From: Escherichia phage vB_EcoM_Skers
Sequence record: MW748999.1
Length of the DNA: 64,000 nt
Direction: 5' to 3' (one strand)
The notes beneath the pieces were generated by a model that worked only from the letters and a program-made list of their open reading frames with translations, did no database searches and was not told where the DNA came from. This document shows positions 4,509 through 61,776 of the stretch, piece by piece; position 1 is the first letter of the stretch; every line of letters begins with the position of its first letter. The translations under genes were made by a program, and so were the position numbers.

Positions 4509-4536
4509 ATTATAGAGAATCTCCCTTGTATGTCAA
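4509..4536 (-). promoter_or_regulatory. sigma70-type early promoter (TTGACA-16-TATAAT) with flanking inverted repeat
   Basis: Reverse complement reads TTGACAtacaagggagattctcTATAAT; GGGAGA/TCTCCC arms bracket the -10. Confidence 0.45.
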
Positions 4537-4539
4537 GTG

Positions 4540-6363
4540 TTATGATTGCATCCAAATTTTGCGTTGATCTGCATCTTCACTATAGAGCAAATCGAATAGC
4601 TCTTTATAGTTTTCCGGTAACGTGATGATCTCCATTACAGGATCGTTGATCACGCGATGATAATCTGATTCTGTAAGCGATGCTAACCCTTTGATATATC
4701 GAATGTTGTAACCTTTGATATTATCTCGGTCGTTCTCGAAATCTTCTAGGTCATAATACCATCGAACATCATCACCTTTCTTTGGTTCCGCAATGATAAT
4801 AGGTGTTTTGATAAACCGGATTCGACCATCTTCGAACAATTCAGGCCAACGAGCAAAGAAAGAGATCAGACTAGGCTTAATAGACCCGATCCCGTCGGTA
4901 TCAGCGTCTGTCATAATCGCAATATTTTTGTATTGCATAACTTCCAATGCATCAACACCAAATTGCAAACCAGTGATCGCCATGATGTTAAAAATTTCAG
5001 CGTTCTTAACGATCTTTGCCTCCGGTTGTTCCCACGTTGTAAGAGTTTTGCCTCGCAACGGGAAACCGCCATGTAAATCTTGATCACGTACAGAGATCAG
5101 ATAGTTGATCGCGGAATCACCTTCCGTCAAAAACAGGGTAGTTTCTGCGTCAGTTCCAATAAGGTTAGCTTTAACGTGCTTTGCTACCTTAGCCCGTTTT
5201 GCTGCCTTTGCTGCCTTAGTCGCTGCCGCTTTATCTGCTGCCTCTTTGCGTGCCAGGACTACAGCAATAATAGGCATGATAATGTTTTCTTTCTTCGCAA
5301 TGACTTTAGCCAGCTTTTTAAAATCAAGATCAATATGACGCTTGATATCACCAGTCGGGTTAGTCAAGCGTTCTTTTGTCTGTGAATCAAAACGAAGGTT
5401 AGGCAATTCACGAACAATAAGAATACAGGTCAATCCAGATTTAACCGCAGCTTTAGTAACATCAACCTTATATTCTTTTTTGATTCGTTTTACAATCTCT
5501 TCACAAAGATCATCTGTCACATAATCAACGTGTGTTCCCCCGTTTTTGGTAAACAGACCGTTAGCAAAGGATACTGATTTAAAACCTTCTCCCTCGACCG
5601 CCGGAACGAGGGCAAGTGAAAAGTTTTTATCTTCAATGACAAACGGATCATCATTGTATAGTTTGGCATAATCCTTGAACTTGCTGGTTATCTTTTTGCC
5701 ATTAAACTTAAACGTGATCTTAGGAAAGATTACACTCAATGAATACATTCGATCGCAAATCACATCTGAAATTTCTTGTGACATGATCATACCTTCAAAA
5801 TGATCGAAATCGGGGCAGAACGTAACCTTAGTTCCTTTCAGTTTTGACGGCTTAGATGACCAGCTAATATTTTCTGCACCATTGGTACATTGAACGGTCA
5901 GTTCATTCTCTCCGTCACACGTCACACCAGTAAACCAGGACGAGAAAAATGATGTGAGCGCGCTTCCGATCCCATTCATACCCATAGTAACACGATTTGT
6001 ATCATCAAAGTTAGACCCTGCTTTAGCTCGTGTCCATGCAGCAACTGGTTGTGGAATCTGTTTCCCCTCTGGCGTCGTAACAATATGTTGCGGAATACCG
6101 CGACCATTATCTGTTACTGACACAATGTTATCTTTTATATCCACACTAATAACATTAGCGTACTCAAAATTAGTGCGGATCGCCTCGTCTACCGAGTTGT
6201 CGATGATCTCATCAATGATTTTAACCAGTCCAGGAACGTATGAAACTTTGGTCCATTTTCCAAATAGGAAACGATTGTGTGATTCATAAGTCGTTGACCC
6301 GATGTACATTGAAGGTCTCTTAAGACAGTGAGCGCGATCATCTAACAGCAAAAATTCAGACAT
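4540..6363 (-). CDS. 39: DNA topoisomerase II large subunit, unsplit (T4 gene 39 plus gene 60 equivalent in one ORF)
   Basis: 607 aa; N-terminus KRPSMYIGS..FGKW..YVPGLVKIIDEIIDNSVDEAIRT (GHKL ATPase) and C-terminal Toprim motif IAIMTDADTDG. Confidence 0.9.
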   Translation of the reverse strand: MSEFLLLDDRAHCLKRPSMYIGSTTYESHNRFLFGKWTKVSYVPGLVKIIDEIIDNSVDEAIRTNFEYANVISVDIKDNIVSVTDNGRGIPQHIVTTPEGKQIPQPVAAWTRAKAGSNFDDTNRVTMGMNGIGSALTSFFSSWFTGVTCDGENELTVQCTNGAENISWSSKPSKLKGTKVTFCPDFDHFEGMIMSQEISDVICDRMYSLSVIFPKITFKFNGKKITSKFKDYAKLYNDDPFVIEDKNFSLALVPAVEGEGFKSVSFANGLFTKNGGTHVDYVTDDLCEEIVKRIKKEYKVDVTKAAVKSGLTCILIVRELPNLRFDSQTKERLTNPTGDIKRHIDLDFKKLAKVIAKKENIIMPIIAVVLARKEAADKAAATKAAKAAKRAKVAKHVKANLIGTDAETTLFLTEGDSAINYLISVRDQDLHGGFPLRGKTLTTWEQPEAKIVKNAEIFNIMAITGLQFGVDALEVMQYKNIAIMTDADTDGIGSIKPSLISFFARWPELFEDGRIRFIKTPIIIAEPKKGDDVRWYYDLEDFENDRDNIKGYNIRYIKGLASLTESDYHRVINDPVMEIITLPENYKELFDLLYSEDADQRKIWMQS

Positions 6364-6369
6364 ATTATA

Positions 6370-7128
6370 TCATTCTCCGTCAGTTCGTTTCAGGTATTCC
6401 AATGCCGCATATAATCTTTGAGGATCGTCTTTGAACATCCCTAATCCGGCATTACATTTTCCACAAAGAACACCTCTTATCTTACCAGTCTTATGATTAT
6501 GGTCAAGATGTTTCCACTTTTGGCGTTTTCTCTCGCCGCATCGTTCATTTATGAATTTTACACCGCATATCTCGCAATTGTCAACTCTGCCTAAAATTTC
6601 TAACGCTTCTCTTTTTGATATTTTTATACCATTTTCGGCATGATGATATGGCCTATCTAGTTCTCGCTCTCGCTTCTCAAACAATCGACACTCATCAGAA
6701 CAATACTTTTGAGATGCGTTTATTGCAACAAATGGTTTACCACATTTAGCGCATTCTCGTTCAATCTTTATGTTTTGTGCCTGGTCCAACGATGCGCAAC
6801 GAGAACAGCAAAATTTATGATAGCCTCTAGAGTATGTATGATAATTTACAGGATTTGGGCATCTTGCACACTTAACTATTCCTGTTATTCCGTGGCGCAA
6901 TCTATAAACAGCCTCGTTATATGGTTGTTGATTTCTGAGACCTCCATTACAGAACTTAAACTCATTCCTTATAATCTGAAATTCCGCAGGATACAATTTT
7001 TCCATTTCTGGAATTTTATTTTCTTTAAAAAGATTTGAGTTTAGTCTATTTCCGCTTTTCGCCTCCAGAACATCAACAATAAACTTTTTGATGTTCACTT
7101 TTCTCTCTCCAATACATAACATAACCAT
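6370..7128 (-). CDS. HNH endonuclease of the endonuclease VII type with N-terminal zinc ribbons (putative free-standing homing endonuclease); start uncertain
   Basis: C-terminus CEICGVKF..WKHLDHNHKTGKIRGVLCGKCNAGLG resembles the EndoVII/gp49 catalytic motif (compare gp49 at 40824: HLDHDHDL..GRVRGLLHSCCN); several CxxC pairs upstream. Confidence 0.55.
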   Translation of the reverse strand: MVMLCIGERKVNIKKFIVDVLEAKSGNRLNSNLFKENKIPEMEKLYPAEFQIIRNEFKFCNGGLRNQQPYNEAVYRLRHGITGIVKCARCPNPVNYHTYSRGYHKFCCSRCASLDQAQNIKIERECAKCGKPFVAINASQKYCSDECRLFEKRERELDRPYHHAENGIKISKREALEILGRVDNCEICGVKFINERCGERKRQKWKHLDHNHKTGKIRGVLCGKCNAGLGMFKDDPQRLYAALEYLKRTDGE

Positions 7129-7200
7129 AACTTACTGCAACCGCCACAAAGACGGCTGCAACAATCATATTAAAAATTGAGTGATTGTCAAGTATATGAC

Positions 7201-7373
7201 TCATGACACGCGCACATTTTTATCATAGTACCCGCCATTAATCCCGCGCGGGGCAGTTAATCCCTGTTTGCATTCTTTACCACATTCAGGGCATTCTGCC
7301 TTTTCACGCTCGGAAATTTTGCGGATTTTCTGAAATTGACCGTGTTCTTCACAAGAATAATCGTATAATGGCA
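7201..7373 (-). CDS. FmdB-like zinc-ribbon small protein (start at MPLYDY)
   Basis: MPLYDYSCEEHGQF...ECPECGKE matches the FmdB-family zinc ribbon pattern; AGGGGA SD upstream of ATG at 7373. Confidence 0.4.
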
Positions 7374-7375
7374 TA

Positions 7376-8044: not shown

Positions 8045-8045
8045 T

Positions 8046-8288
8046 TTAAATATCCTCCGCGATATGCCGGAACAACTCCAGATCGTTTTTATCCAGAATG
8101 AAACCGCTACAATCAATAATCCCGTTACCGTAATTATCGGTTAACAGTCGGTCCGTTGCCATGTATGCGCGTACTTTGTTGTTAAAATTCATTACATGTT
8201 GTGCATAGTCACAATGAATCTTTTGACGGTTCCACGCGACAATTGATTGTAGATGTATTACATTAGCCATATTATTAATAACAACCAT
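8046..8288 (-). CDS. hypothetical small protein (dexA.x position)
   Basis: 80-aa ORF starting MVVINNMANV immediately after stop of upstream ORF (TGATATG junction). Confidence 0.35.
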   Translation of the reverse strand: MVVINNMANVIHLQSIVAWNRQKIHCDYAQHVMNFNNKVRAYMATDRLLTDNYGNGIIDCSGFILDKNDLELFRHIAEDI

Positions 8289-8340
8289 ATCAAAACCCTC
8301 GCTTAGTGGAATGTTCTGGCATTTTATTGATACATACAGC
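8285..8340 (-). repeat. direct repeat copy 1 (~56 bp, spans 3' end of a small gene plus start of the next)
   Basis: ccatatcaaaaccctcgcttagtggaatgttctggcattttattgatacatacagc is ~85% identical to 8463-8518. Confidence 0.5.
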
Positions 8341-8466
8341 TTGGTAGTCACGAGATTTTTTTGACGAATTAAGAGCTACAGCCAAAAAATCCTGTAACTG
8401 TTCGTTTGTCATTTTTGGCTTACACCGCGTATCTAAACCCTTCGTTCTTCTAGCTTCATTAGCCAT
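8290..8466 (-). CDS. hypothetical small protein (58 aa)
   Basis: ORF MANEARR...CINKMPEHSTKRGF; C-terminal 14 aa paralogous to the next small ORF. Confidence 0.35.
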   Translation of the reverse strand: MANEARRTKGLDTRCKPKMTNEQLQDFLAVALNSSKKSRDYQAVCINKMPEHSTKRGF

Positions 8467-11106: not shown

Positions 11107-11135
11107 AATTGATTCTCCTTAGTTGGTATGTGTGT

Positions 11136-11164
11136 ATTATTGTCTATCTGGTTTGTGCTGTCAA
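11136..11164 (-). promoter_or_regulatory. sigma70-type early promoter candidate
   Basis: TTGACA on minus strand 17 nt upstream of an AATAAT-like -10, just upstream of start at 11106. Confidence 0.35.
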
Positions 11165-11167
11165 CAC

Positions 11168-11671: not shown

Positions 11672-11740
11672 AATAAAAAAGCCTCCAATCTTTCGACGGG
11701 AGGCATAATAAAACCATTATAGAGTAGTGTCAACTAATTT

Positions 11741-17793: not shown

Positions 17794-18021
17794 CTATTCA
17801 GTTAATCCGTAATACTTTAATTGCTTCATTGTTATTCGATCTTTGTAGTGCTCTTGAATTAACTTTTTCATCGCACCAACATCGATCGTCACAAATACTT
17901 CGTTGCTGTGATTTCCGTGAACTTTCTTGAAATGCTCTATGCCTTCCTCACGTCCACGTTTAATCTTTTCAATGTATCTCATAATATATTTCTCACATTG
18001 ACGGGTATCGTCACCCAACAC
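17794..18021 (-). CDS. hypothetical small protein (sits where T4 has beta-gt/42/imm)
   Basis: 75-aa ORF between uvsX and gene 43. Confidence 0.4.
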   Translation of the reverse strand: MLGDDTRQCEKYIMRYIEKIKRGREEGIEHFKKVHGNHSNEVFVTIDVGAMKKLIQEHYKDRITMKQLKYYGLTE

Positions 18022-18043
18022 CCGCCATTATACACACTTTATC

Positions 18044-20722
18044 TTAAATGTCAAACAGGTCAGTCAGAGAAGCAACTTTTTCATATTGCAGCTTTGCAGC
18101 CGTGGTAATGTTCTCCAGTGGTTTGACGAAAGTCTTATTAAACAACAAAGGCCAGTCCAACCACTTCAACACCTCTGATTCAATTTCTGGCGGAATACGA
18201 GTACCGGACAACCAACCAAAACAGATTTCTCCAAACGGATTTCGATCTTTAAGCGGTACAATCATAACCTTCTCGCCTTCACGAATCGGATCTAGTCCGA
18301 ATTTTCGAGCATTACGATTATAACACAATACACTCTTAACCGCATACGGACAACCCTTAATCGGATACCCGTTTGAATCGCTGTATTTCTGTAGGTTGTT
18401 TGCAGATGATACCGCAGCAACCTCAAGATAGTCAAGTTTTCTAAACTCTTGCTCAAAAATACCGTAGTATTCCTGCAATGACTCTTCACCTTCCTGCAAC
18501 ATACGGCGAATACATTCTTTCAGTGATTTCTGACATGCTTTAGGGGTGGAGCTACGTTGCGTTTCCAAGCCCATGATTTTTAGCTTAGGCTCAGCAAAGC
18601 GCGTTCCTTCCATATCCCAAACATTAAGAGCATAACGCTTTTTGCCAGTCCAGAATCCACCGATACCCGCAGATTTCAACGGAGGACCAGCAATTGCCTC
18701 ACGGTCCATAAACATCAAGTGCTCATAGTTGTTCATGTACTCGCATAACTCGCGATATCCCTTGTCGATAATCGGTTCCATTCTATGTTTACCGAAATTA
18801 TCAAGGAAGTCAACAAGTTTTTCGGTATCGTCGAAACGATCTTCCCCGCCAACCTTATCAACAACATTGTTAACCAGCACATAAACGGAGTCAGTATCAC
18901 AATAACGAACATATGCAAAATCAGTTGTTCCGCAAAGCTCGTTTAAGTATTCGTTAATCTTGCGCTCAATCCACTGAATTGCAAGCTGACCGAACAAGGT
19001 GATCGCACTAGCGTTGCGGAGATCATAAAAACGGAATTTAGGATTCCCCAACGCACCATAAAGGGAGTTGATCAAAACTTTTCGAGAAAGCTGGTTTGTA
19101 TTGCACAAGATCGACTCGTCTTTACATTCTTCCAGCAATTTCTCTAAGGCATCTTTACTTAATTCAGAAAGCATCGATTTAAACGCTTCATCGAAGTCGT
19201 GACGTACTTCAACGCTATAGCTAATGGTTCCCCCATAAACATGATTTTCATCGTGTAGAATCGCTTTACAGAGTTCAGCATTGCGATCACATGCCAACAT
19301 CATGTTTTTGTACTGCTTACGCTGATCGAATACCTTTTTAATCTCAATAGGTACGATACCGTGAATATCTTTTCTATACATCCATCCGTTAGGCGAGCAA
19401 GAATACTCATCACTCGGACGTGGTGCAGTTTTATTGATATACTCGTGCATCGGTGCAGCATCAAAAGATCCGGCGATTGTTTCCGGCGAAATGTTAACCT
19501 GTCGAATAATAGATGGATACAGACTTGTTAGGTCAAAGCTCATCATCCAACGGTAAGCATTCGGCACAGGTTCTTTTACAAATGCGCCTGGATACGTCTG
19601 CTTAGGATGTATCTTATTTTCCGGTACTACTTTACCCTCAGCTTTCAGAGATCCGAAGATAATAGCATCCCATACTTTCATCGGGTTATAAACATGGTTA
19701 AATTTAATCTTTGCATAGAAACATAGGCTATACACCAGATCGATAAATCCGCGCTTTTTATCAATCGCCAGCACACGATCAACGTCGCCGATGTTATAAT
19801 CGATGTAAAGTTGATGGTTGTCATCACGCAATTTCTTTAACGGACCATCATAATCAACCTTACCGATTCCGGTCTCATATTCAGCAACATAATCTAATGC
19901 ATATGTTGGTTGAGTCGTAAAGCTAAACTTCTTGTACAGGTCAATATAATCAAGGCTTTCGATCCCCATGATCGTAAATGCTTCACGCTCGTTGCCAAAA
20001 TCATCCTGTGAGATTCGGGATTTAATCTTACCGCACGGGCTTAGACGGTTTGCCGTTCGACTTCCAAACTTATTCCCGATACGTTTAATGATATATGGAA
20101 TATCGAATGTTTCTGTGTTCCAGCCAGTGAAACCAACGGGTCGGTTTTCCTCAAAGAATCGGATGTATTCTAACAGCAATTCATCTTCTGTGTCATAGAC
20201 GTTATAAACAACGCGCTCTACAATATCAGGTCGAAGAATAGACTTGCTAGATTCCCAGATTTCACCGTTTTTTCCTTTCAAATCAAATACAAAGAAACGA
20301 TCATGTACGGAATCATAATGCGTAATTGCATCGATAGGATATTTCGCTTCTTCTGGTTTAGGAAATTCTGGGGCAGTGACCTCAATATCAACCCATGCTA
20401 CACGGATTTTATTTCGGTCATATCGAATCTCGCCTTTATATGTATCGGACAGATAGGAGATGATAAAATCATCCATCCCTAGTGCCTCCTGCCCCATTTC
20501 TCCCATCTTTTTACGCCATTTGTTGGCCTCGTTCATAGATGGGAATTTTTTAGCAATGCAAGGCTTGCCGTAGATATCTTTATAATTCGTAACCATACCA
20601 GGCGCGGCATGATGAAATAAAGTTGGCATATATTCAACGTAACGCTCTTGTTCTTGTCCAGCATCATCAATATAACGCTCGTAGATCTTATCACCCACTC
20701 GCTCACATGACAGAAAATACAT
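18044..20722 (-). CDS. 43: DNA polymerase (family B); start at MYFLS, not the upstream ATG of the track ORF
   Basis: Exo motif WVDIEV, pol motifs DLTSLYPSII and CDTDS; AAGGAG SD 9 nt upstream of ATG at 20722. Confidence 0.9.
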   Translation of the reverse strand: MYFLSCERVGDKIYERYIDDAGQEQERYVEYMPTLFHHAAPGMVTNYKDIYGKPCIAKKFPSMNEANKWRKKMGEMGQEALGMDDFIISYLSDTYKGEIRYDRNKIRVAWVDIEVTAPEFPKPEEAKYPIDAITHYDSVHDRFFVFDLKGKNGEIWESSKSILRPDIVERVVYNVYDTEDELLLEYIRFFEENRPVGFTGWNTETFDIPYIIKRIGNKFGSRTANRLSPCGKIKSRISQDDFGNEREAFTIMGIESLDYIDLYKKFSFTTQPTYALDYVAEYETGIGKVDYDGPLKKLRDDNHQLYIDYNIGDVDRVLAIDKKRGFIDLVYSLCFYAKIKFNHVYNPMKVWDAIIFGSLKAEGKVVPENKIHPKQTYPGAFVKEPVPNAYRWMMSFDLTSLYPSIIRQVNISPETIAGSFDAAPMHEYINKTAPRPSDEYSCSPNGWMYRKDIHGIVPIEIKKVFDQRKQYKNMMLACDRNAELCKAILHDENHVYGGTISYSVEVRHDFDEAFKSMLSELSKDALEKLLEECKDESILCNTNQLSRKVLINSLYGALGNPKFRFYDLRNASAITLFGQLAIQWIERKINEYLNELCGTTDFAYVRYCDTDSVYVLVNNVVDKVGGEDRFDDTEKLVDFLDNFGKHRMEPIIDKGYRELCEYMNNYEHLMFMDREAIAGPPLKSAGIGGFWTGKKRYALNVWDMEGTRFAEPKLKIMGLETQRSSTPKACQKSLKECIRRMLQEGEESLQEYYGIFEQEFRKLDYLEVAAVSSANNLQKYSDSNGYPIKGCPYAVKSVLCYNRNARKFGLDPIREGEKVMIVPLKDRNPFGEICFGWLSGTRIPPEIESEVLKWLDWPLLFNKTFVKPLENITTAAKLQYEKVASLTDLFDI

Positions 20723-20754
20723 AATATAAACTCCTTCACTTACGAAAGACACTC

Positions 20755-20783
20755 ATTATAGGGGAATCGACCTAGTTTGTCAA
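20755..20783 (-). promoter_or_regulatory. sigma70-type promoter upstream of gene 43 (TTGACA-17-TATAAT)
   Basis: Reverse complement TTGACAaactaggtcgattccccTATAAT about 30 nt upstream of the gp43 ATG. Confidence 0.5.
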
Positions 20784-20804
20784 TACCCCTATCCCATCAG
20801 TATC

Positions 20805-27297: not shown

Positions 27298-27557
27298 CGT
27301 ACAGACTCCATAGATCCACGCGCAATAACATTCTGGGTAATATCAGCAACCTTACGGGATACGATGTTTGTTAGCCCCTCTTTGGTGATATTTTCACGAT
27401 CAAATGGGATTTCGTCATGAGTCCACAAACCATAGTTAGACCGAAATGATAGCATATACTGACCATCTCGCACAACCTCAAATACATGGATCTTAGTGAA
27501 TTTCGATAAACCTTCGTTGATTTCTTTCAGTGCATTAGTAATCATAACAACCTCCAA
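27294..27557 (-). CDS. hypothetical protein
   Basis: 87-aa ORF; GGAGG SD. Confidence 0.4.
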   Translation of the reverse strand: MEVVMITNALKEINEGLSKFTKIHVFEVVRDGQYMLSFRSNYGLWTHDEIPFDRENITKEGLTNIVSRKVADITQNVIARGSMESVR

Positions 27558-27571
27558 TCAATTTTTAGAGA

Positions 27572-27599
27572 GTATAACGGGGATTTCTCCCCGCGTCAA
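27572..27599 (-). promoter_or_regulatory. promoter candidate (TTGACG-16-TATACT) with GGGGA/TCCCC hairpin in the spacer
   Basis: Motifs read on the minus strand upstream of ORF starting at 27557. Confidence 0.35.
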
Positions 27600-29795: not shown

Positions 29796-31265
29796 CTATT
29801 CCCCATTACCATTATACTTTCTTTGTTTAGTTATCCACACTCTAACCATCTCTACTGATTCACCGTCAGACGGGTCAAGAGTTTTTCCCTTTTTCTTCAT
29901 GCGGTACTTAAATCCGTTAAATCTTGCATTCTCTTGTTCGTTAAAGTCGAACATCTTTTTAAATGATTTTCGCCCTTTACGCTCACCACATTCTAGCGGA
30001 ATCATTCGGTCTGTTATTACATTGGCATTAGGTAGAAACGTTTTTAGATAATCGACCAACGCCCAATCAGGAACATATAGATTAACATTCTCCTTGCTCT
30101 CGTTGTCTCTCAGGTTACAACGCAAACATAATTGAAATGCTGGTTCCAGATAATCAGACACATGACGCGCTTTCAAAAACTCGTTTGTTGGGAGATCGCA
30201 ACTATTAGCAAGACCTTTTAAAATATCAATCTCCCATCGTTGAGGGTTAAAGCTGAACATCACAGCAACATTTTTATGATGAATGTAAGAGTTAAGACCA
30301 TAAGATCCGTAAGGTATCCGCTCACCAATACCATTTGTACACGCTTCACGGTCCCGATTCACGGTATAAATGAAGTCATCGCCACATTCATTTTTAACCA
30401 TATCAACAAGACGTTCAAAGGTATTGTTTGTTTCTGACTGGTGACGAGACCATCGTTCGGAGTCCGTCATAAGGATGATGTTAACTCTATCTGTATTTTT
30501 ATACTCTTTGAAATATAGTCTGGATTCTAGCGCACTCGGAACAAAATCGCAATTTGCATAGTATCGTAGATACTTCCCACTATATGTATCAAAGAGATTT
30601 GCACATGCTATCGTAACCTTTTTAAAGTCTCCCCACGTACCGTGTTTGTTATCGTTCAAGAAAACAATTTTCGACCCATTCTTCCGGTGTCCTTCGTTAT
30701 GTTTTACCATAACGTTGATTTTCTTCTCTAATAACGCCTCATAAAGCCCTCTAAGAGAAGAATCGATCATATCAGTACCATCCTTTGCACTTTCTATCTT
30801 TTCTTTGATAGCGGCCTTCTCAGAGTCTTTTAGAACTAAGTTCTGTAGGCATTCCGATTCGTCGGCGATTGGTTCGCAATGCTTCGTGATAAGTTCAAGA
30901 TTAGACTTAAACGGATACTCATTAAATTCAACCAGTTGAGGAACTTCATCAATATAAAGAGCATATTCACTAAACATTTTTGAACGTTCCATATTAGATA
31001 ACGCTGTATGTGTGATGAATATCACATCAGCACCATCTTTAACTGATTGCATTATCGACGCTTGCACTGTCTTAAGGCTTCTTAGTCTGGTGCTATCAAT
31101 CAAGACAGCACGACCGCCCATTCTTTTAAACTTATTGTAAGATTGTTCACTTAAAACACGAGATGGCGAAGCAATAACCGCTTTTTCTTTTGTCTCTAGG
31201 ACGTGGGAAAGTATAGCATCCGTTTTCCCCGCCGCTGGCAATGCGATTAATGTTTCAATCTTCAT
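29796..31265 (-). CDS. P-loop NTPase-like protein of unknown function (489 aa)
   Basis: Deviant Walker A ALPAAGKT, Ia-like IASPSRVL, Walker B-like YIDEVPQ; no T4 counterpart recognised. Confidence 0.5.
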   Translation of the reverse strand: MKIETLIALPAAGKTDAILSHVLETKEKAVIASPSRVLSEQSYNKFKRMGGRAVLIDSTRLRSLKTVQASIMQSVKDGADVIFITHTALSNMERSKMFSEYALYIDEVPQLVEFNEYPFKSNLELITKHCEPIADESECLQNLVLKDSEKAAIKEKIESAKDGTDMIDSSLRGLYEALLEKKINVMVKHNEGHRKNGSKIVFLNDNKHGTWGDFKKVTIACANLFDTYSGKYLRYYANCDFVPSALESRLYFKEYKNTDRVNIILMTDSERWSRHQSETNNTFERLVDMVKNECGDDFIYTVNRDREACTNGIGERIPYGSYGLNSYIHHKNVAVMFSFNPQRWEIDILKGLANSCDLPTNEFLKARHVSDYLEPAFQLCLRCNLRDNESKENVNLYVPDWALVDYLKTFLPNANVITDRMIPLECGERKGRKSFKKMFDFNEQENARFNGFKYRMKKKGKTLDPSDGESVEMVRVWITKQRKYNGNGE

Positions 31266-34819: not shown

Positions 34820-35030
34820 TTACCCCGAACTCGTTTACAATCTGCGCTTTATAGTAACCACCGCGAGATGCTAATAGATAAGCTGGGCTTAGGTATTCGT
34901 ATTCACGGATTTCTACTTGTGCGTTTTCAGTTTCCCAAATCAGTAAAGTCCACATATTTGATTCTCCTGTAAAGTTGTATCTCGTCTTGATGAATATAGT
35001 ATAGGGGATCTCGCGATCCCCGTCAAGCAT
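34803..35030 (-). CDS. hypothetical small protein
   Basis: 75-aa minus-strand ORF. Confidence 0.3.
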   Translation of the reverse strand: MLDGDREIPYTIFIKTRYNFTGESNMWTLLIWETENAQVEIREYEYLSPAYLLASRGGYYKAQIVNEFGVIEYEF

Positions 35031-36115: not shown

Positions 36116-36143
36116 GTTGTCCTCTCGTTGTTTTCGATGTGAA

Positions 36144-36171
36144 CATTATACATTAGCTAATCAGGTTGTCA
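36144..36171 (-). promoter_or_regulatory. sigma70-type early promoter (TTGACA-16-TATAAT)
   Basis: Minus-strand TTGACA and TATAAT hexamers directly downstream of the nrdD terminator. Confidence 0.45.
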
Positions 36172-36176
36172 ACACC

Positions 36177-36209
36177 TAAAAACGAAAAAGCCGACCCTTT
36201 CGGATCGGC
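36177..36209 (-). terminator. rho-independent terminator after nrdD
   Basis: Hairpin AGCCGAtCCgaaaGGgTCGGCT followed by U-tract on the minus strand. Confidence 0.5.
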
Positions 36210-36215
36210 TGAAAA

Positions 36216-38617: not shown

Positions 38618-38647
38618 AATATAATCCTCTCGTTGTTAAGTGGGAGT

Positions 38648-38675
38648 ATTATAGCATACTCCCTTCGCATGTCAA
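38648..38675 (-). promoter_or_regulatory. promoter-hairpin cassette (TTGACA-16-TATAAT inside GGGAGTAT/ATACTCCC palindrome)
   Basis: -35 overlaps the stop codon of the upstream family gene. Confidence 0.45.
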
Positions 38676-39850: not shown

Positions 39851-39881
39851 AATATAATCCTCTCGTTGTTTAGATGGGAGT

Positions 39882-39910
39882 ATCTTACTACTCCCGTTTC
39901 ATCATGTCAA
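39882..39910 (-). promoter_or_regulatory. promoter-hairpin cassette (TTGACA-17-TAAGAT, GGGAGTA/TACTCCC palindrome)
   Basis: Same architecture as 38648-38675. Confidence 0.4.
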
Positions 39911-40760: not shown

Positions 40761-40791
40761 TGTTGATTCTCCTTCTTGATTAGATGGGAGT

Positions 40792-40820
40792 ATTTTACTA
40801 CTCCCATTTCTTATTGTCAA
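40792..40820 (-). promoter_or_regulatory. promoter-hairpin cassette (TTGACA-17-TAAAAT, GGGAGTA/TACTCCC palindrome)
   Basis: Located between gene 49 stop and B4 start. Confidence 0.4.
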
Positions 40821-40823
40821 CTA

Positions 40824-43982: not shown

Positions 43983-44051
43983 AATATAATCCTCACATCG
44001 TTCATTTGATGCGGCTATTATAGATTAACCGCATTTTCATGTCAACCGTTT

Positions 44052-44649: not shown

Positions 44650-44691
44650 TTTGATTCTCCTTAAGAAAGTGTGTTTCGTTTTGATGTGTGT

Positions 44692-44720
44692 AGTATAGGG
44701 GATACGTGATCCCCTGTCAA
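44692..44720 (-). promoter_or_regulatory. promoter-hairpin cassette (TTGACA-17-TATACT, GGGGAT/ATCCCC palindrome)
   Basis: Minus-strand motifs upstream of ORF starting at 44649. Confidence 0.4.
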
Positions 44721-44728
44721 CAACTTTT

Positions 44729-46738: not shown

Positions 46739-46767
46739 CTTTGATTCTCCTTAGTTGGTATGGTTAC

Positions 46768-46795
46768 ATTATACGGGGATTTCTCCCCGTGTCAA
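46768..46795 (-). promoter_or_regulatory. promoter-hairpin cassette (TTGACA-16-TATAAT, GGGGA/TCCCC palindrome)
   Basis: Minus-strand motifs upstream of ORF starting at 46738. Confidence 0.45.
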
Positions 46796-46798
46796 CAA

Positions 46799-47020
46799 TT
46801 AAATGATCTCTGCTTCACCGTTAAGGAAGAAAGACCATGTTTTGTTAGGATAGCGAAGCGCCCATGATTCAGCAGTTTTAACACCAGCTTCGAACAATTG
46901 ACGGCTGGTTACTTTAGCCATACCATCTTCGATGGCAACGTTTTCAATAATCATCGGGTACTTAGCGCCACGCATGAAACCGAAGCCAGCGGAAGATTTG
47001 ATAATTTTAACAGTTGCCAT
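46799..47020 (-). CDS. hypothetical protein
   Basis: 73-aa minus-strand ORF. Confidence 0.4.
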   Translation of the reverse strand: MATVKIIKSSAGFGFMRGAKYPMIIENVAIEDGMAKVTSRQLFEAGVKTAESWALRYPNKTWSFFLNGEAEII

Positions 47021-47060
47021 TTTTTGATTCTCCTAGAAAGTGTCGTGTTTCGATGGGTGT

Positions 47061-47089
47061 ATTATGCAATAACACCGGATCGCTGTCAA
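47061..47089 (-). promoter_or_regulatory. promoter cassette (TTGACA-17-CATAAT)
   Basis: Minus-strand motifs upstream of ORF starting at 47020. Confidence 0.4.
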
Positions 47090-47107
47090 CACTTTCTAAG
47101 AAAAAAT

Positions 47108-56559: not shown

Positions 56560-56718
56560 TCATCGCAGAGCTTCTTCTAGCGCGATCCCAAACCATCCAC
56601 AAACAACGCCCATACAGACAGCTACAAGAAGATTCATTCTCTCTTTAGGGATCATTGCAATCATAACAACAACCATACAGAAAGCCATTACCATTGAAGT
56701 TAACATTTGTTCAACCAT
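56560..56718 (-). CDS. small hydrophobic membrane protein (52 aa)
   Basis: ORF MVEQMLTSMVMAFCMVVVMIAMIP...; its 5' part is duplicated in the artifact at 56906-56978. Confidence 0.3.
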   Translation of the reverse strand: MVEQMLTSMVMAFCMVVVMIAMIPKERMNLLVAVCMGVVCGWFGIALEEALR

Positions 56719-56757
56719 TATCACACCTTTAAAGTCATAGACGCATAAACATTAATG

Positions 56758-57017
56758 GAAGAGCGTCGTGTAGGGTTGGGGGGTCGGGGGGCCAAACAAC
56801 GCCCATACAGACAGCTACAAGAAGATTCATTCTCTCTTTACACAACGAACACAAAACTCTACAGAAATCTAAACACTCAAAGTCTACACGACGCTCTTCC
56901 GATCTCTTTAGGGATCATTGCAATCATAACAACAACCATACAGAAAGCCATTACCATTGAAGTTAACATTTGTTCAACCATTATCACACCTTTAAAGTCA
57001 TAGACGCATAAACATTA
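56758..57017. other. probable assembly artifact: Illumina adapter sequence plus re-duplicated flanking phage sequence
   Basis: GGAAGAGCGTCGTGTAGGG (adapter reverse complement) + poly-G junk, then copy of 56601-56647, then ACACGACGCTCTTCCGATCT (adapter), then second copy of 56643-56757. Confidence 0.8.
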
Positions 57018-57322
57018 ATGCCAGGCCAGTTAGGATCGCAATTATACTCAACATCCCACAAATAAAGCGGTTTAGATGTATCAGCCAAGTTTTTAAAATC
57101 TTCTACCCACATTTCAAGGCTATAGGATGGATAAACTAGGCTATCATATCCGCCGTAACGTTGGCCTACTGGTCGGTCAGTAAAAACTACCTCAAGATCC
57201 GGTAATTCTTTTTCAAGGATAACCGCCAGCGCATAAATCAGACGGTCTTCCTTGTTACGCTGCCGAAGGACCGTTGTCAGTTGGTTTTTCTGGTTCACTA
57301 GCAAGCACCTCCACATTTTCAC
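56984..57322 (-). CDS. hypothetical protein (start uncertain, possibly GTG at ~57298)
   Basis: 112-aa ORF; its 3' end lies in the duplicated segment. Confidence 0.35.
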   Translation of the reverse strand: MKMWRCLLVNQKNQLTTVLRQRNKEDRLIYALAVILEKELPDLEVVFTDRPVGQRYGGYDSLVYPSYSLEMWVEDFKNLADTSKPLYLWDVEYNCDPNWPGINVYASMTLKV

Positions 57323-57991: not shown

Positions 57992-57992
57992 A

Positions 57993-58175: not shown

Positions 58176-58183
58176 AATATACC

Positions 58184-58510
58184 TTAGAAAGAAACCGTTT
58201 TCAAGAAATCCAGATTTTCAGTACCGAAAACAGAAAAGTAGTGTTTTCCTTTTTCGGTTTTAGAGAAAGCGATTGTCTTCTCTACATGGTGACGGAAGCC
58301 AGACAGACGATCACCCAGGTCAAGGCGGCAAGCGTAAGTAGTGCCGTTTTCGAAAGTAACCTCGATTTGAGTTTTGTCATATTCGCTTTCATAGGCTTTT
58401 GCTGCCGCGTCCAGTGCTTTACGCTCGAAGTCTTCGAAGTGGAATACTTCGTTTGCGTTAGCGAATACAGAAGATTCAGAGAAGATAACTTTAACAGATA
58501 CTGGTTTCAT
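58184..58510 (-). CDS. hypothetical protein
   Basis: 108-aa ORF with SD. Confidence 0.4.
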   Translation of the reverse strand: MKPVSVKVIFSESSVFANANEVFHFEDFERKALDAAAKAYESEYDKTQIEVTFENGTTYACRLDLGDRLSGFRHHVEKTIAFSKTEKGKHYFSVFGTENLDFLKTVSF

Positions 58511-58601
58511 TTGATACTCCTTAGTGTGTTTCGATGAGGTAACTATACTCTAGCCACCTCATTAAGTTTTAACAAAAAGTGCTATTTTCTAGTTTAATGT
58601 A

Positions 58602-58745
58602 TCAATCCCAGACAATCCAAACCTGTATAGAAGACTTTGCATCTGGGTTATCTTTAAGGATTTTATCAATGGCATTGTTTAGCTTCTCTCTTGTTTTGAA
58701 CAAACCAACAATACAACCCATTGCTTGTAATTTAAAAACTGGCAT
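58602..58745 (-). CDS. hypothetical small protein (47 aa)
   Basis: ORF MPVFKLQAMGCIVGLFKTREKL... downstream of promoter cassette; not in track. Confidence 0.3.
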   Translation of the reverse strand: MPVFKLQAMGCIVGLFKTREKLNNAIDKILKDNPDAKSSIQVWIVWD

Positions 58746-58779
58746 TTACCCCCCCATATCTTCTCGTTTCGATGGGTGT

Positions 58780-58808
58780 ATTATGCTATACACCCTCTCG
58801 TATGTCAA
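58780..58808 (-). promoter_or_regulatory. promoter-hairpin cassette (TTGACA-17-CATAAT inside GGGTGTAT/ATACACCC palindrome)
   Basis: Minus-strand motifs. Confidence 0.45.
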
Positions 58809-58815
58809 CAACTTT

Positions 58816-59004: not shown

Positions 59005-59026
59005 AGTATCACCTCAACACTTAACG

Positions 59027-59227
59027 TTATTCAAACTCAAACGGTCTATTCAACCTATTGTAAAAGTACATATAACAAGCAAAATTATGCTTTGGCTGTA
59101 CCGTATCAGATAGACACGCTTTTACAGCCTCGCGGTCCGATGGATCTACACCCTCAGCTTTAAGTAATGCTAAAATCTGGTTATAGCGTACTCTTAGTTG
59201 TACTAATGGTAATGGTTTATCCCCCAT
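59027..59227 (-). CDS. hypothetical small protein
   Basis: 66-aa ORF. Confidence 0.35.
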   Translation of the reverse strand: MGDKPLPLVQLRVRYNQILALLKAEGVDPSDREAVKACLSDTVQPKHNFACYMYFYNRLNRPFEFE

Positions 59228-59236
59228 ATTACCCCC

Positions 59237-59458
59237 TTATAGTTGATCAGCGATGTAAGCGTGACAAGCGCGGAGTTTCATTAATGCACTACCTTTCACT
59301 TCGCCTACGATGTTCATAACTTCTAAGCGGTCGGATGGATTCATCTTAGAGCACCAGATCTGGTTAGCCAATTCCAGTTTACTCATATTTGGTTCCATCT
59401 CAAACAGTTCACGCTCAAAGTCGATAATTTCTTTTGCTGCGTCTTTAAAGTTAATCAT
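59237..59458 (-). CDS. hypothetical small protein
   Basis: 73-aa ORF with GGAGAATCAAA SD. Confidence 0.4.
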   Translation of the reverse strand: MINFKDAAKEIIDFERELFEMEPNMSKLELANQIWCSKMNPSDRLEVMNIVGEVKGSALMKLRACHAYIADQL

Positions 59459-59487
59459 TTTGATTCTCCCGTTTCGTTGATGGTTGT

Positions 59488-59516
59488 ATTGTAGGGGAGT
59501 TATCCTCCCCTGTCAA
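59488..59516 (-). promoter_or_regulatory. promoter-hairpin cassette (TTGACA-17-TACAAT, GGGGAG/CTCCCC palindrome)
   Basis: Minus-strand motifs. Confidence 0.4.
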
Positions 59517-59524
59517 CACTTTTA

Positions 59525-59710
59525 TCAGAAATATGCAATATAGTTTGCCAGTCCTACAGAGTCATCATTCGGCATTGCTTTTACTGCCAGTTCAAACCCT
59601 GCTTCAACTTTCTGTTTAGCGGATTCTTCGTTATAACCCCAGATTACCAGAATAGCTACTACGTTTTCTTTGCTTACTGCTTTCAGTGCTTTAGTGATGC
59701 GACGTGCCAT
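59525..59710 (-). CDS. hypothetical small protein
   Basis: 61-aa ORF with SD. Confidence 0.4.
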   Translation of the reverse strand: MARRITKALKAVSKENVVAILVIWGYNEESAKQKVEAGFELAVKAMPNDDSVGLANYIAYF

Positions 59711-59756
59711 AATTTGATTCTCCGTTTAAGAAAGTGTGTTTCGTTTCGATAGGTGT

Positions 59757-59785
59757 ATTATGCTATAGGAGTGATCTGGTGTCAA
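59757..59785 (-). promoter_or_regulatory. promoter cassette (TTGACA-17-CATAAT)
   Basis: Minus-strand motifs upstream of ORF starting at 59710. Confidence 0.4.
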
Positions 59786-59810
59786 CAACTTTTTTAAAAA
59801 AATTTTAGGC

Positions 59811-59838
59811 AATAAAAAAGCCACTCCGAAGAGTGGCT
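59811..59838 (-). terminator. rho-independent terminator
   Basis: Hairpin AGCCACTCttcgGAGTGGCT followed by U-tract on the minus strand. Confidence 0.55.
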
Positions 59839-59983
59839 TATAGGGAAGGTAGCGAATCTTCCTTGTCTCCAACCTGCTAGCGGCCTAGCAAGTGAATGCT
59901 TTAGCGTACCGGATCGCCCACATACGCTGTAATAAATGCGGCTAGGTGACGTCCAAATCATTCTAACCGCGCTGTCTTTAGTT
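59839..59983 (-). ncRNA. candidate small non-coding RNA (~145-170 nt) between a late-promoter core and a terminator
   Basis: No convincing ORF or SD; several internal inverted repeats (CCTAGC/GCTAGG, GGAAG/CTTCC, TGCTAG/CTAGCA); bounded by TATAAATA and an intrinsic terminator. Confidence 0.25.
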
Positions 59984-59988
59984 CACTA

Positions 59989-60207
59989 TTATTTATATCG
60001 CTTTCTCTCGCGACGTTTTTGATCTTCTTCCTTGATAGAGTTAAATGCATCAAAAAGACACATGACACTAATAATAAACATAACCGTATTTTCTACGATA
60101 TCCCACGGCTTCGCATCAGTACAGATCCCCCAAACGGTAAGAAATGCAAATAGTGCAGAAGAGATCACAAGCATGATACTTGCTAAGATATAAAAAGTCA
60201 TTTTCAT
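59989..60207 (-). CDS. small hydrophobic membrane protein
   Basis: 72-aa ORF. Confidence 0.3.
   Translation of the reverse strand: MKMTFYILASIMLVISSALFAFLTVWGICTDAKPWDIVENTVMFIISVMCLFDAFNSIKEEDQKRRERKRYK
59990..59997 (-). promoter_or_regulatory. T4-type late promoter core (TATAAATA)
   Basis: Exact TATAAATA on the minus strand overlapping the stop of ORF 59989-60207. Confidence 0.35.
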
Positions 60208-60398
60208 GGTTTTACCTCAATTCTTCGATATTCATCACACATCCACGCAGTAAGCAAGAATCCCAACACATAAGCAACAAAATACGTTAATGCTTCTTCT
60301 GGTTCGGTGCTATGCGCCATCATCAGACCAGCGAGAAAGGTCTTAACAATCACATTTAAAATAATTAGCCACGCAAATAATTTCATCGTTTGCCCCAT
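60204..60398 (-). CDS. small hydrophobic membrane protein
   Basis: 64-aa ORF. Confidence 0.3.
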   Translation of the reverse strand: MGQTMKLFAWLIILNVIVKTFLAGLMMAHSTEPEEALTYFVAYVLGFLLTAWMCDEYRRIEVKP

Positions 60399-60622
60399 TT
60401 CGGTCGAGTCTTTTCAAACTTATACATTCCGTAACAATCTCGAATCATCCACGTAACAAGAGCACCAGTCAACACAGACAATACACAGAAGAAGTAAAAC
60501 GGTCCGGTTGCATTATCAACATGAGCAAGCCAGGTAAAGAAAACACATGCTAAGAATGTAAAGAACATCATAAAGCACAAGAAAGCGAAATATTTTATAC
60601 TACTCATAGCGCCACCATACAA
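60383..60622 (-). CDS. small hydrophobic membrane protein
   Basis: 79-aa ORF. Confidence 0.3.
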   Translation of the reverse strand: MYGGAMSSIKYFAFLCFMMFFTFLACVFFTWLAHVDNATGPFYFFCVLSVLTGALVTWMIRDCYGMYKFEKTRPKWGKR

Positions 60623-60710
60623 AAGATCATAAGAAAACCCAACGCAATAAGAATTGCATCAAATTTAGTGAACTCAGGTCCACCTATCAACATCATTCGT
60701 TCTATTTCGT

Positions 60711-60953
60711 TCATAGCGTACAAAGCCATTTAAAAGCACCACATAAAGCGAGCAGAATACTAGGTATAAACGAGATCAAAACAAGTTGGCAAAAATCATC
60801 TAAGGTAACACCGGAATAGCTACCTACTGTAACAACACCGATCATCAGACACAGAAAGAAAACAAATGCAATCATAAACAAAGTATTGCTAAACAGTTTA
60901 GTGATCATTAGACACCCCACGACAATCAATTTCAAAAACTTTTTTATCATCAA
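60711..60953 (-). CDS. small hydrophobic membrane protein
   Basis: 80-aa ORF. Confidence 0.3.
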   Translation of the reverse strand: MMIKKFLKLIVVGCLMITKLFSNTLFMIAFVFFLCLMIGVVTVGSYSGVTLDDFCQLVLISFIPSILLALCGAFKWLCTL

Positions 60954-61101
60954 CGAAGCATGTCACAACTGCCTCGTTGACTTCCGCAAATTGTTGTGTT
61001 ACCCACTTAAGGTCAGAGCGAAACAATGTTCTATTAATAACAAATGTTTTACCGCTCTTATCCTTACCCATAAATTTTGCTTTAACCATATCCAATTCCA
61101 T
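60898..61101 (-). CDS. hypothetical small protein
   Basis: 67-aa ORF. Confidence 0.3.
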   Translation of the reverse strand: MELDMVKAKFMGKDKSGKTFVINRTLFRSDLKWVTQQFAEVNEAVVTCFVDDKKVFEIDCRGVSNDH

Positions 61102-61110
61102 ATTATCACC

Positions 61111-61269
61111 TTATTTGCTAATCGCTAAACCCAATCCGAAGAGAGCACCCGATGCTACAGTATACCCGAAAGTTTCAAAGGCAGTAAAGATATCTAAGCC
61201 ACCAGCTAACAGAGTTGCAGTAAACAGAGTACCAGCTACGAACATAAAAGTTTTACCGATAAATTTCAT
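61111..61269 (-). CDS. small hydrophobic membrane protein (52 aa)
   Basis: ORF MKFIGKTFMFVAGTLFTATLLAGG... with GGAGAATCAAA SD; not in track. Confidence 0.3.
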   Translation of the reverse strand: MKFIGKTFMFVAGTLFTATLLAGGLDIFTAFETFGYTVASGALFGLGLAISK

Positions 61270-61299
61270 TTTGATTCTCCTTTCGTTTGTTTGTGGGGG

Positions 61300-61329
61300 T
61301 ATCTTACTACCCCCGTTTCATGTTGTCAA
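61300..61329 (-). promoter_or_regulatory. promoter-hairpin cassette (TTGACA-18-TAAGAT inside GGGGGTA/TACCCCC palindrome)
   Basis: Minus-strand motifs. Confidence 0.4.
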
Positions 61330-61335
61330 CTGTTT

Positions 61336-61710
61336 TTAAGAAAATTTTACTTCGTCTACAATGTCTTTCATGACATTGATTTCCATTCCGGTCAGAACAC
61401 GTTGGAACATGTGCTGCACATACGCTTTCAGGTATTCATTTGATGGCTTGCTATCGAAAGTCTTTTTAGTGTAGTAGTCATCACCGAAAGCTACTGTAAT
61501 TACATTTTCGTCGTCGTTCCAAGCGATATAAGCAAATTTGCCGTTATCCCAGAAGCGAGCACTAATTGCTACTTTTGTTGAATCGAATCCTACTTCGCTG
61601 TGAGATTCAAGAACTACTTGCGTGCCAGTTTCTTTATGAATGTAGTAGCGGGATACTAAGTCAAAGTTACGTGTGTAGTGACATTCGAATTTATCTTTAA
61701 ACATCATCAT
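61336..61710 (-). CDS. hypothetical protein (start at MMMFKDK)
   Basis: AGGAGAATCAAA SD before ATG at 61710; track ORF over-extended into the promoter. Confidence 0.4.
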   Translation of the reverse strand: MMMFKDKFECHYTRNFDLVSRYYIHKETGTQVVLESHSEVGFDSTKVAISARFWDNGKFAYIAWNDDENVITVAFGDDYYTKKTFDSKPSNEYLKAYVQHMFQRVLTGMEINVMKDIVDEVKFS

Positions 61711-61747
61711 TTTGATTCTCCTAAGTGTGTTTCGTTTCGATATGTGC

Positions 61748-61776
61748 ATTATGCTATAGTCGTTTATGGTTGTCAA
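61748..61776 (-). promoter_or_regulatory. promoter cassette (TTGACA-17-CATAAT)
   Basis: Same cassette as 36144-36171 and 48303-48331. Confidence 0.45.

Follow-up and report, generated by a model that had tools for sequence, protein, structure and literature searches.

Repeated promoter and stem-loop cassettes, very probably PeSLs, in the intergenic spacers of the RB49-like Escherichia phage vB_EcoM_Skers

We analysed a stretch of 64,000 nucleotides from Escherichia phage vB_EcoM_Skers (sequence record MW748999.1), here called the window, whose intergenic spacers carry a repeated cassette of promoter, ribosome-binding site and, in most copies, a hairpin. The phage is a Krischvirus, an RB49-like T4-type coliphage with ~96–97% identity to RB49: megablast of window positions 30–50 kb against 50,697 phage records returned 58 matches, all of them Krischvirus (RB49, phi1, JSE and relatives) and all covering the full query at 90–97% identity. 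The genes of the window all lie on the minus strand. Its left end falls ~1.3 kb before the end of rIIA; replication genes follow, and then a hyperplastic region that extends up to genes 57A, 1 and 3.

Dispersed elements of this kind were defined in RB49 and phi1 by Arbiol, Comeau, Kutateladze, Adamia and Krisch (2010, Genome Biol Evol 2:140; PMC2839356) as promoter early stem-loops (PeSLs). Each RB49 or phi1 genome holds ~51–52 of them, mainly in hyperplastic regions, where they sit between the stop codon and the Shine–Dalgarno sequence (SD) and ATG of small ORFans; the definition comprises a σ70-consensus promoter preceded by an A/T-rich region, and a stem-loop, frequently polyG/polyC, in one of five possible positions (PMC2839356). 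Two PeSLs were shown to act as promoters and one as a terminator, the assayed elements (PeSL193/192, 206/205 and 211/210) all lying outside our window, and PeSLs were associated with indels of ORFans and with mini-circles detected experimentally (PMC2839356). Comeau et al. (2014) extended the idea to other T4-like phages. The cassettes described here are very probably PeSLs, that is, compact early-gene expression cassettes of RB49-type (Krischvirus) phages. Such cassettes are already published and their presence in the window is an ordinary finding, apart from one cassette that seems to have been imported.

The promoter module and its identity

The window has 39 matches to the pattern TTGACA-N15–19-TANNNT on its minus strand and none on the plus strand. 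Dinucleotide shuffles gave 5.45 ± 2.63, and 39 was not reached in any of 100; this was the comparison that an initial annotation, made from the letters of the window alone, had named in advance as able to overturn its proposal of repeated promoter cassettes. A relaxed promoter scan gave 68 matches on the minus strand and 6 on the plus strand (Markov expectation, 10.7), and GGAGAATCAA was present in 12 copies on the minus (coding) strand and in none on the plus strand. When all spacers of at least 28 nt were listed, 24 intergenic spacers held a good −35/−10 pair and ~5 further ones a weaker pair, so that the ‘at least 18’ first proposed is right. The full module, present in at least 24 spacers, runs from an A/T tract through TTGACA, a spacer of 16–17 nt and the −10 to a start region of the CATCGAAAC type and the ribosome-binding site GGAGAATCAAA. 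The 20 nt 5′ of the −35 have the consensus aaaa.tttt.AaaaA.ttG, the A/T tract ending in ..AAAAAGTTG; an alignment anchored on the −10 revealed agreement beyond the hexamers, in that the −10 is followed by a C-rich stretch and the CATCGAAAC box, the leader is rich in A and C, and AGGAGAATCAAAATG is frequent. Seventeen of the 24 aligned cassettes lie within 34–62 kb, among open reading frames (ORFs) mostly of 50–200 codons.

A repeat search recovered the cassettes independently, as direct-repeat families D1, D2, D4, D7, D9 and D10. Three copies that had been described as nearly identical over ~70 bp proved less alike: over 43 nt, 36157–36199 shares 86% identity with 48316–48358 and 72% with 61761–61803; over 64 nt, 48285–48348 shares 83% with 61730–61793; and the truly identical core of the three is ~20–25 nt (GTTTTTAGGTGTTGACAACC).

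The reading of these modules as PeSLs, to which the initial annotation had likewise been led, is borne out on several counts: the window itself is RB49-like, the anatomy of the cassettes fits the published definition in every point, and their sites are orthologous to cassette sites in RB49, phi1 and JSE. Several cassette sites are annotated as early promoters in the RB49 and GEC-3S records, and BLAST with one cassette found matches in 58 Krischvirus records, at 5–9 places per record. The early promoters of RB49 have C or T at −12 and are C-rich from −3 to −1, in agreement with 5′ end mapping (Nolan et al. 2006, PMC1524935). Each cassette of the window would provide a strong host σ70 promoter, with an A/T-rich UP-like tract, TTGACA, a 16–17 bp spacer and a −10 of the TATAAT/CATAAT type. 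Transcription probably starts at the A of the conserved CATCGAAAC box, and an A/C-rich leader and a strong GGAG-containing ribosome-binding site would then lead to the ATG of a small early gene.

Stability, position and conservation of the hairpins

Folding of the 55-nt segment round each promoter match, compared with shuffles that kept both hexamers, gave a mean z of −2.19 for the intergenic matches (n = 28, 16 of them below −2) and of −0.12 for intragenic look-alikes (n = 40, 2 below −2; Mann–Whitney p = 7e-5), an excess stability that is observed directly. A hairpin accompanies most cassettes, but the claim that it encloses the −10 in most was overstated. Among the 24 cassettes, the −10 lies inside the hairpin in ~9, the hairpin occupies the −35/−10 spacer in 5, a longer stem spans the promoter in 2–3 and a stem lies downstream in 2–3; about 5 are stemless at the promoter, and 4 of those have a terminator just upstream. 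All five stem-loop positions of the PeSL definition thus occur in the window. The sequences and coordinates that the initial annotation had quoted proved right, among them those of its two example hairpins, GGGGGTAgtaatatACCCCC at 52927–52946 and GGGAGTAT..ATACTCCC at 38642–38663.

The stems are also conserved. Twenty cassettes were aligned with their orthologues from seven relatives (RB49, phi1, JSE, FL15, GoldenSnicker, ECD7 and SSG23), taken from GenBank records; variable columns numbered 9 of 220 in stems, compared with 12 of 110 in loops (Fisher p = 0.029) and 96 of 1,014 at other positions outside the boxes (p = 0.0075). Most of the stem changes kept the pairing; examples are T-A to T-G, cassette 44045, where TT faces AG, GA or AA, and the SSG23 copy of cassette 20783, which has a double change. 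In cassette 44720 the arms are unchanged among the relatives and the loop is divergent. These orthologue-based counts replaced a single fixed covariation model for all paralogues, which was dropped because, relative to the −10, the stems take up two registers or more. A locus search of IMG/VR with thymidine kinase returned one Krischvirus and eleven more distant loci, a set unsuited to orthologue sampling.

Of 36 distinct variants folded on both strands, 29 had a more stable fold on the mRNA-sense strand than on the antisense strand (mean −2.1 kcal/mol; p = 2.6e-4, Wilcoxon), by virtue of G-U pairs. This strand asymmetry favours, though not decisively, a sense-strand RNA structure over a symmetrical DNA element. 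Scanned against Rfam at gathering thresholds, the whole window yielded no family; the hairpins are not a curated RNA family.

The palindromes might instead act as DNA, in the form of cruciforms or of sites for a phage protein that tune or shut the early promoter or start recombination (for example, as the target of a structure-specific nuclease), but we regard this as improbable. It would suit the place of the stems, over the −10 or filling the −35/−10 spacer, exactly where RNA polymerase binds, as well as the C-rich discriminator (ACCCCC) that the 3′ arm forms right after the −10 and the lack of T-runs behind the embedded stems. However, the arms differ between copies (GGGGGTA, GGGAGTA, GGGTGTAT, GGGGATAT, GCGGTTA, GGGGATC) and their complementarity is kept, which argues for a structure rather than a sequence-specific site. 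A cruciform, moreover, needs both strands paired, whereas here the sense strand tolerates G-T pairs, and it is the sense fold that is the stabler in most variants; and in cassettes without an embedded stem an ordinary upstream terminator takes its place.

Terminators and the role of the stems

A consensus terminator scan of the coding strand called separate upstream stems with T-runs at 61798–61818, 59818–59839, 54171–54195 and 48345–48370, and a separate upstream stem at ~36180–36201 has the same combination of G/C stem and T-run. Of the 14 cassettes whose embedded hairpin is a simple one, none has a strong upstream terminator; of the 10 that lack such a hairpin, 4 do (p = 0.02). This complementary distribution suggests that embedded stems and upstream terminators are functionally equivalent, each insulating its unit. 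The stems lie wholly or partly upstream of their own start site, and so their RNA form would arise only in transcripts arriving from upstream. On such read-through RNA the most likely effect of the stem is attenuation or termination of the transcript, or a capped 3′ end, and each small gene would thereby be insulated; we infer that every embedded hairpin in the window acts on read-through RNA. The cassette at 11672–11740 probably starts its own transcript inside or after the 5′ arm of its hairpin, so that the terminator, together with the trapping of the SD, would be formed by read-through RNA only.

Several observations weigh against this account. The consensus scan flagged no embedded stem on the coding strand, and the 8-nt tail holds 0–4 T in 13 of the 14 embedded stems, cassette 4536 being the exception; canonical intrinsic termination is therefore doubtful for the embedded hairpins. 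The published terminator assay concerned a single stem-loop, that of PeSL211/210, which lies outside the window (PMC2839356). Counted per cassette, the sense/antisense asymmetry is marginal (11 of 14, p = 0.057), and a literature search found no paper with Krischvirus transcription start sites.

The same lack of T-runs speaks for RNA hairpins that serve not as terminators but as stabilisers or processing sites at the 3′ end of the upstream mRNA, for instance after Rho-dependent or nucleolytic 3′ end formation, a reading that we consider possible but rather doubtful. The stems are short and G/C-rich with small loops, in the manner of hairpins that protect 3′ ends. RegB, encoded by the phage, cuts GGAG, and the SDs are GGAG-rich, so that early mRNAs are probably processed between genes. 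Yet the stem-loop tested by Arbiol et al. cut downstream lacZ as strongly as rrnB T1 (PMC2839356), and the complementary distribution with canonical terminators fits stabilisation and termination alike.

Gene insertions and exchanges at the cassettes

A module of ~60–100 nt repeated dozens of times would offer patches of homology for recombination, by which ORFan-plus-cassette units could be gained, lost and swapped. Chained BLAST against the seven relatives yielded ~13 real structural differences and one artefact. Among them we observed one clean PeSL-by-PeSL insertion, at 58534–58763 on the minus strand, consisting of a 47-aa ORFan (58602–58745) and a second cassette and bounded by direct repeats CATCGAAAC(GA). 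The order there is PeSL, CATCGAAACGA, ORFan, second cassette, CATCGAAAC and an LPD25-domain gene. The insertion is absent from all 58 Krischvirus records of the phage collection, which have a single PeSL at this place, and every BLAST alignment ends at CATCGAAACGA. It recurs, its CATCGAAACGA repeats perfect, in two other Krischvirus-like contigs, of which one is part of an E. coli assembly and the other comes from a sequencing run. For the ORFan, tblastn against the 50,697 phage records gave no match, and nor did a search at the DNA level; among 5.8 billion proteins there were only two near-identical copies, both from Krischvirus-like contigs and at the same locus. No donor genome was identified among these phage records and proteins.

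One further, partial case is the exchange of a PeSL ‘allele’ linked to g38 (46773–46799). Six of the seven relatives have g38 and a terminator-type PeSL where the window and FL15 have a PeSL with its hairpin in the spacer, before the same gene; the middle was exchanged, and the flanks TTGTTGACA and ..ACCATACCAACTAAGGAGAATCAAAGATG are common. The adhesin gene g38 itself is present at the 46739–46798 site in RB49, phi1, JSE, ECD7, SSG23 and GoldenSnicker and missing from the window and FL15, an absence that may bear on host range. An indel at 48418–48489, which by its position looked PeSL-associated, was rejected, its junctions lying in the 3′ coding end of the upstream gene and outside the cassette.

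The proposal that cassettes mediated the gene shuffling, as the initial annotation put it, is thus only partly borne out, with one clean and one partial case. PeSL junctions are found in only 1–2 of the ~13 indels, and several replacements have no PeSL at their junctions. Five of the differences are free-standing homing-endonuclease genes: the window ORF 6370–7128 (Endonuclease_7), RB49 ORF040 (HNH/AP2) and three in JSE (one at 55320, HNH_3+AP2). Homing endonucleases hence account for more local indels than PeSL exchange does. The 8342–8463 event is a tandem gene duplication.

Two of these loci can be described further. The ORF at 6370–7128, of 252 aa, lies between topoisomerase gene 39 and 39.2, is absent from RB49 and is probably a free-standing homing endonuclease. 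At 8046–8288 and 8290–8466, a small ORF like RB49 ORF009, single-copy in RB49, is duplicated in tandem together with its ribosome-binding site.

With so many indels of this origin, or at least without PeSL junctions, the cassettes could be ordinary promoters and terminators, alike through selection for strong expression in E. coli and minor players in shuffling, the indels being due mainly to homing endonucleases and illegitimate recombination. Insertions survive only in intergenic DNA, where promoters are anyway, and a similar −10 and leader occur in unrelated T1-like and T7 phages, which could be convergence. We nevertheless think this explanation unlikely. The paralogues are alike outside the known boxes too (GTTTTTAGGTG upstream, ACACCCATCGAAACGAAACACAC downstream; 83–86% over 43–64 nt), both junctions of the 58534–58763 insertion lie inside the conserved leader box, the PeSL before ORF078 has had its spacer exchanged between genomes with the flanks kept, and mini-circles have been detected by experiment (PMC2839356).

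A cassette of the T1-like type and likenesses across phage families

The second cassette of the insertion (58511–58601) looks as if it was imported from T1-like phages; if so, exchange happens at least sometimes. The ~58–100 nt that follow the ORFan matched 212 records of Klebsiella, Escherichia, Salmonella and related phages, at 82–86% identity over ~58 nt. Membership of the Drexlerviridae (Webervirus, Rogunavirus and Tlsvirus) was confirmed for three inspected records of the 212. In three Drexlerviridae genomes, the proteins encoded upstream of the matching cassette had no obvious similarity to the ORFan when their translations were inspected by eye. In the direction of transcription, AAATAGCACTTTTTGTTAAAA lies at 58587–58567, and 77 nt separate it from the ATG at 58510. 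No other copy is present in the window, and this one matches the 21-nt consensus aaATAGCACnnnTTGnTAAAA, which is the intergenic direct repeat of the T1-like phages TLS, T1, Rtp and Rogue1, found ~76 nt upstream of the start codon (PMC11447400). The function of that repeat is listed as an open question in the TLS genome paper, the available text of which does not mention PeSL-like units behind it (PMC11447400).

Such units can be seen in Tlsvirus DanielBernoulli, which has 17 copies of the 21-nt repeat (for example at 31144, 38552, 40601 and 43945). Most are followed by a G/C hairpin that abuts or overlaps a CATAAT-type −10, by (A/G)CACnCATCGAAACGAAAC (the CATCGAAAC leader) and by GGAGAATC..ATG. 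A log-odds matrix built solely from the ‘−10 plus 20 nt’ blocks of the window found 13 matches of at least 12 bits in this genome against 1.28 expected (at most 5 in any of 100 shuffles), and 10 of the 13 stand directly behind a 21-nt repeat. An nhmmer model of the 30-nt −10 and leader block gave no match in Tlsvirus, probably for being too short to pass the filters of the program. Likenesses extend to T7: cassette 61329 (61295–61335) and the T7 A2 promoter have in common the 13-mer TTGACAACATGAA, the 9-mer GTAAGATAC and, upstream, AAAAACAG, with spacing equal within 1 nt, and in T7 A3 the −10 lies inside a 5-bp palindrome, GGTAC-GAT-GTACC.

The likeness with T1-like phages and T7 may reflect either exchange or convergence on strong E. 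coli expression signals. We tentatively suggest, as a reading that falls somewhat short of an even chance, that PeSLs are not confined to T4-like phages, that the half of the PeSL comprising −10, start, leader and SD (CATAAT-(A/G)CACCC-ATCGAAACGAAAC...GGAGAATCAA) comes from a pool of early cassettes shared with T1-like Drexlerviridae, and that one promoter half is like T7 A2/A3. In that event, the common leader would be homology enough for cassettes to cross between unrelated families of virulent coliphages at co-infection, with the ORFan and Drexlerviridae-type cassette between two CATCGAAACGA boxes as a caught example, and the 21-nt repeat would make up the upstream portion of a promoter unit resembling a PeSL, a suggested answer to the question raised in the TLS paper. 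If confirmed, this would make regulatory cassettes common linkers for gene flow between unrelated virulent coliphages.

Catalogue of the cassettes and other features of the window

The cassettes are listed in Table 1.

Table 1. Promoter cassettes of the window, all on the minus strand; arms of stems are separated by a slash, and z is the folding score against shuffles
Coordinates	Type	Promoter	Stem-loop or terminator	z	Other features
61711–61824		TTGACA-17-CATAAT (61748–61776)	Upstream terminator CCCCGAAAATTTTTCGGGG + T-run (61798–61818); no −10 hairpin		ATCGAAACGAAACACAC leader, AGGAGAATCAAAATG
61270–61335	PeSL	TTGACA-17-TAAGAT (61301–61329)	GGGGGTA/TACCCCC (61295–61314) round −10	−5.2	
59711–59839		TTGACA-17-CATAAT (59757–59785)	Canonical terminator (59818–59839) before promoter; no promoter hairpin in this genome		
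59459–59524	PeSL		AGGGGAG/CTCCCCT fills −35/−10 spacer (59488–59516)	−5.2	
58746–58815	PeSL	TTGACA-17-CATAAT (58780–58808)	GGGTGTAT/ATACACCC over −10		Upstream junction of window-specific insertion at CATCGAAACGA
58511–58601	Drexlerviridae-type	−10 TATAGT	GAGGT/ACCTC round TATAGT		21-nt repeat AAATAGCACTTTTTGTTAAAA (58567–58587); CATCGAAAC leader; SD and ATG of LPD25-domain gene
52903–52961	PeSL	−10 TAATAT	GGGGGTA/TACCCCC (52927–52946) over −10	−4.2	
52055–52139		TTGACT-17-TATTAT	12–13 bp stem CTTGACTTTCTG/CAGAAAGTTAAG encloses promoter, pairs −35 with +1 region	−4.8	5′ of regB
48274–48372		TTGACA-17-CATAAT (48303–48331)	Terminator AGCCATCC-GAAA-GGGTGGCT + T-run (48345–48370) before promoter		
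47021–47107	PeSL	TTGACA-17-CATAAT	Weak GGTGT/ACACC stem only		
46739–46798	PeSL		Spacer hairpin CGGGGA/TCCCCG		Different PeSL allele + g38 (~900 bp) in RB49, phi1, JSE, others
44650–44728	PeSL		Spacer hairpin GGGGAT/ATCCCC		Arms conserved, loop variable among relatives
43983–44051	PeSL		GCGGTTA/TAGCCGC over −10		AG, GA or AA opposite TT in relatives, all pairing
40761–40823	PeSL	−10 TAAAAT	ATGGGAGTA/TACTCCCAT over −10		
39851–39910	PeSL	−10 TAAGAT	GGGAGTA/TACTCCC over −10		Upstream stop codon overlaps −35
38618–38675	PeSL	−10 TATAAT	GGGAGTAT/ATACTCCC (38642–38663) over −10		
36116–36215		TTGACA-16-TATAAT (36145–36172)	Terminator AGCCGATCC-GAAA-GGGTCGGCT + T-run before promoter		Downstream of nrdD
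34956–35030	PeSL	TTGACG-17-TATACT	Spacer hairpin GGGGATC/GATCCCC		
27546–27599	PeSL	TTGACG-17-TATACT	Spacer hairpin CGGGGA/TCCCCG		Paralogue of 46795 copy
20723–20804	PeSL		Long interrupted stem TAGGGG.ATTGAC/GTCGAT.CCCCTA across −35 and spacer		Upstream of DNA polymerase g43
17983–18054		TTGACA-16-TATAAT	CGGGT/ACCCG hairpin after −10		Downstream of g43
11672–11740		Promoter before hairpin	GCCTCC/GGAGGC hairpin + T6		SD in 3′ arm
11107–11167		TTGACA-17-AATAAT	No hairpin		CATACCAACTAAGGAGAATCAA leader
4475–4539		TTGACA-16-TATAAT	13-bp stem enclosing promoter, then TTTTCTTTT; only embedded hairpin with terminator-like T-run	−5.9	
4109–4174	PeSL	−10 CATAAT	GGGGATAT/ATATCCCC over −10		

RegB, an endoribonuclease cutting at GGAG, is encoded at 52140–52562, and the same GGAG-containing SD (AGGAGAATCAAAATG) is found in twelve cassettes; the cassettes may therefore also be RegB targets through which early translation is shut off. 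Upstream of rI, at 49282–49344, a late promoter motif of the T4 type, TATAAATA, lies within the hairpin CCCCAGATTT/AAATCTGGGG, the 3′ arm of which overlaps the SD. This arrangement resembles that of T4 lysozyme and soc, in which the ribosome-binding site is hidden in early read-through RNA but not in late transcripts.

The 145-nt block at 56758–56902 is almost certainly an assembly artefact. It contains ends of Illumina TruSeq adapters (GGAAGAGCGTCGTGTAGGG... and ...CTACACGACGCTCTTCCGATCT), a junk stretch of poly-G and phage sequence copied from nearby, lies between 118-nt duplicates of 100% identity (56640–56757 and 56903–57020), with further exact repeats at 56600–56647 and 56793–56840, and is missing in all relatives; it creates spurious small ORFs.

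Comparison with known systems

PeSLs explain how RB49-type phages can express their small early genes as units insulated from one another, and their homology provides a route by which ORFans may be gained and lost. To this the present analysis adds comparative support for selection on the stems as sense-strand structures, together with a warning against taking the embedded stems, most of which are not of the canonical kind, for ordinary terminators.

In genus, sites, anatomy, positional subclasses of the stem-loop and association with small ORFans, the cassettes are like the PeSLs of RB49 and phi1, of which they are orthologues. Nothing essential differs; the window has the extra ORFan-plus-cassette unit at 58534–58763 and is without g38 at 46773–46799. 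With intrinsic terminators they have in common G/C-rich stem-loops at gene ends, and 4–5 cassettes of the window do have a genuine stem and T-run just upstream, whereas the promoter-embedded stems are without a T-run (0–4 T in 8 nt).

The morons of Hendrix and the linkers of Botstein and Campbell are comparable in that a single gene moves together with a promoter and a terminator of its own, and in that conserved flanks serve as exchange points. In PeSLs, by contrast, homologous exchange is proposed to take place in the regulatory sequence itself, and PeSL genes are oriented like their neighbours.

The unit behind the 21-nt repeat of T1-like phages resembles the downstream half of a PeSL, with its −10 hairpin, CATCGAAAC leader and GGAGAATC SD. 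It differs in the upstream half, which has TTGnTAAAA ~22 nt from the −10 where a PeSL has TTGACA at 17 nt, and the repeat is described without a PeSL-like unit in the available text of its published account. The T7 promoters A2 and A3, for their part, belong to three tandem promoters at one end of the T7 genome, whereas PeSLs form a family dispersed between ORFans.

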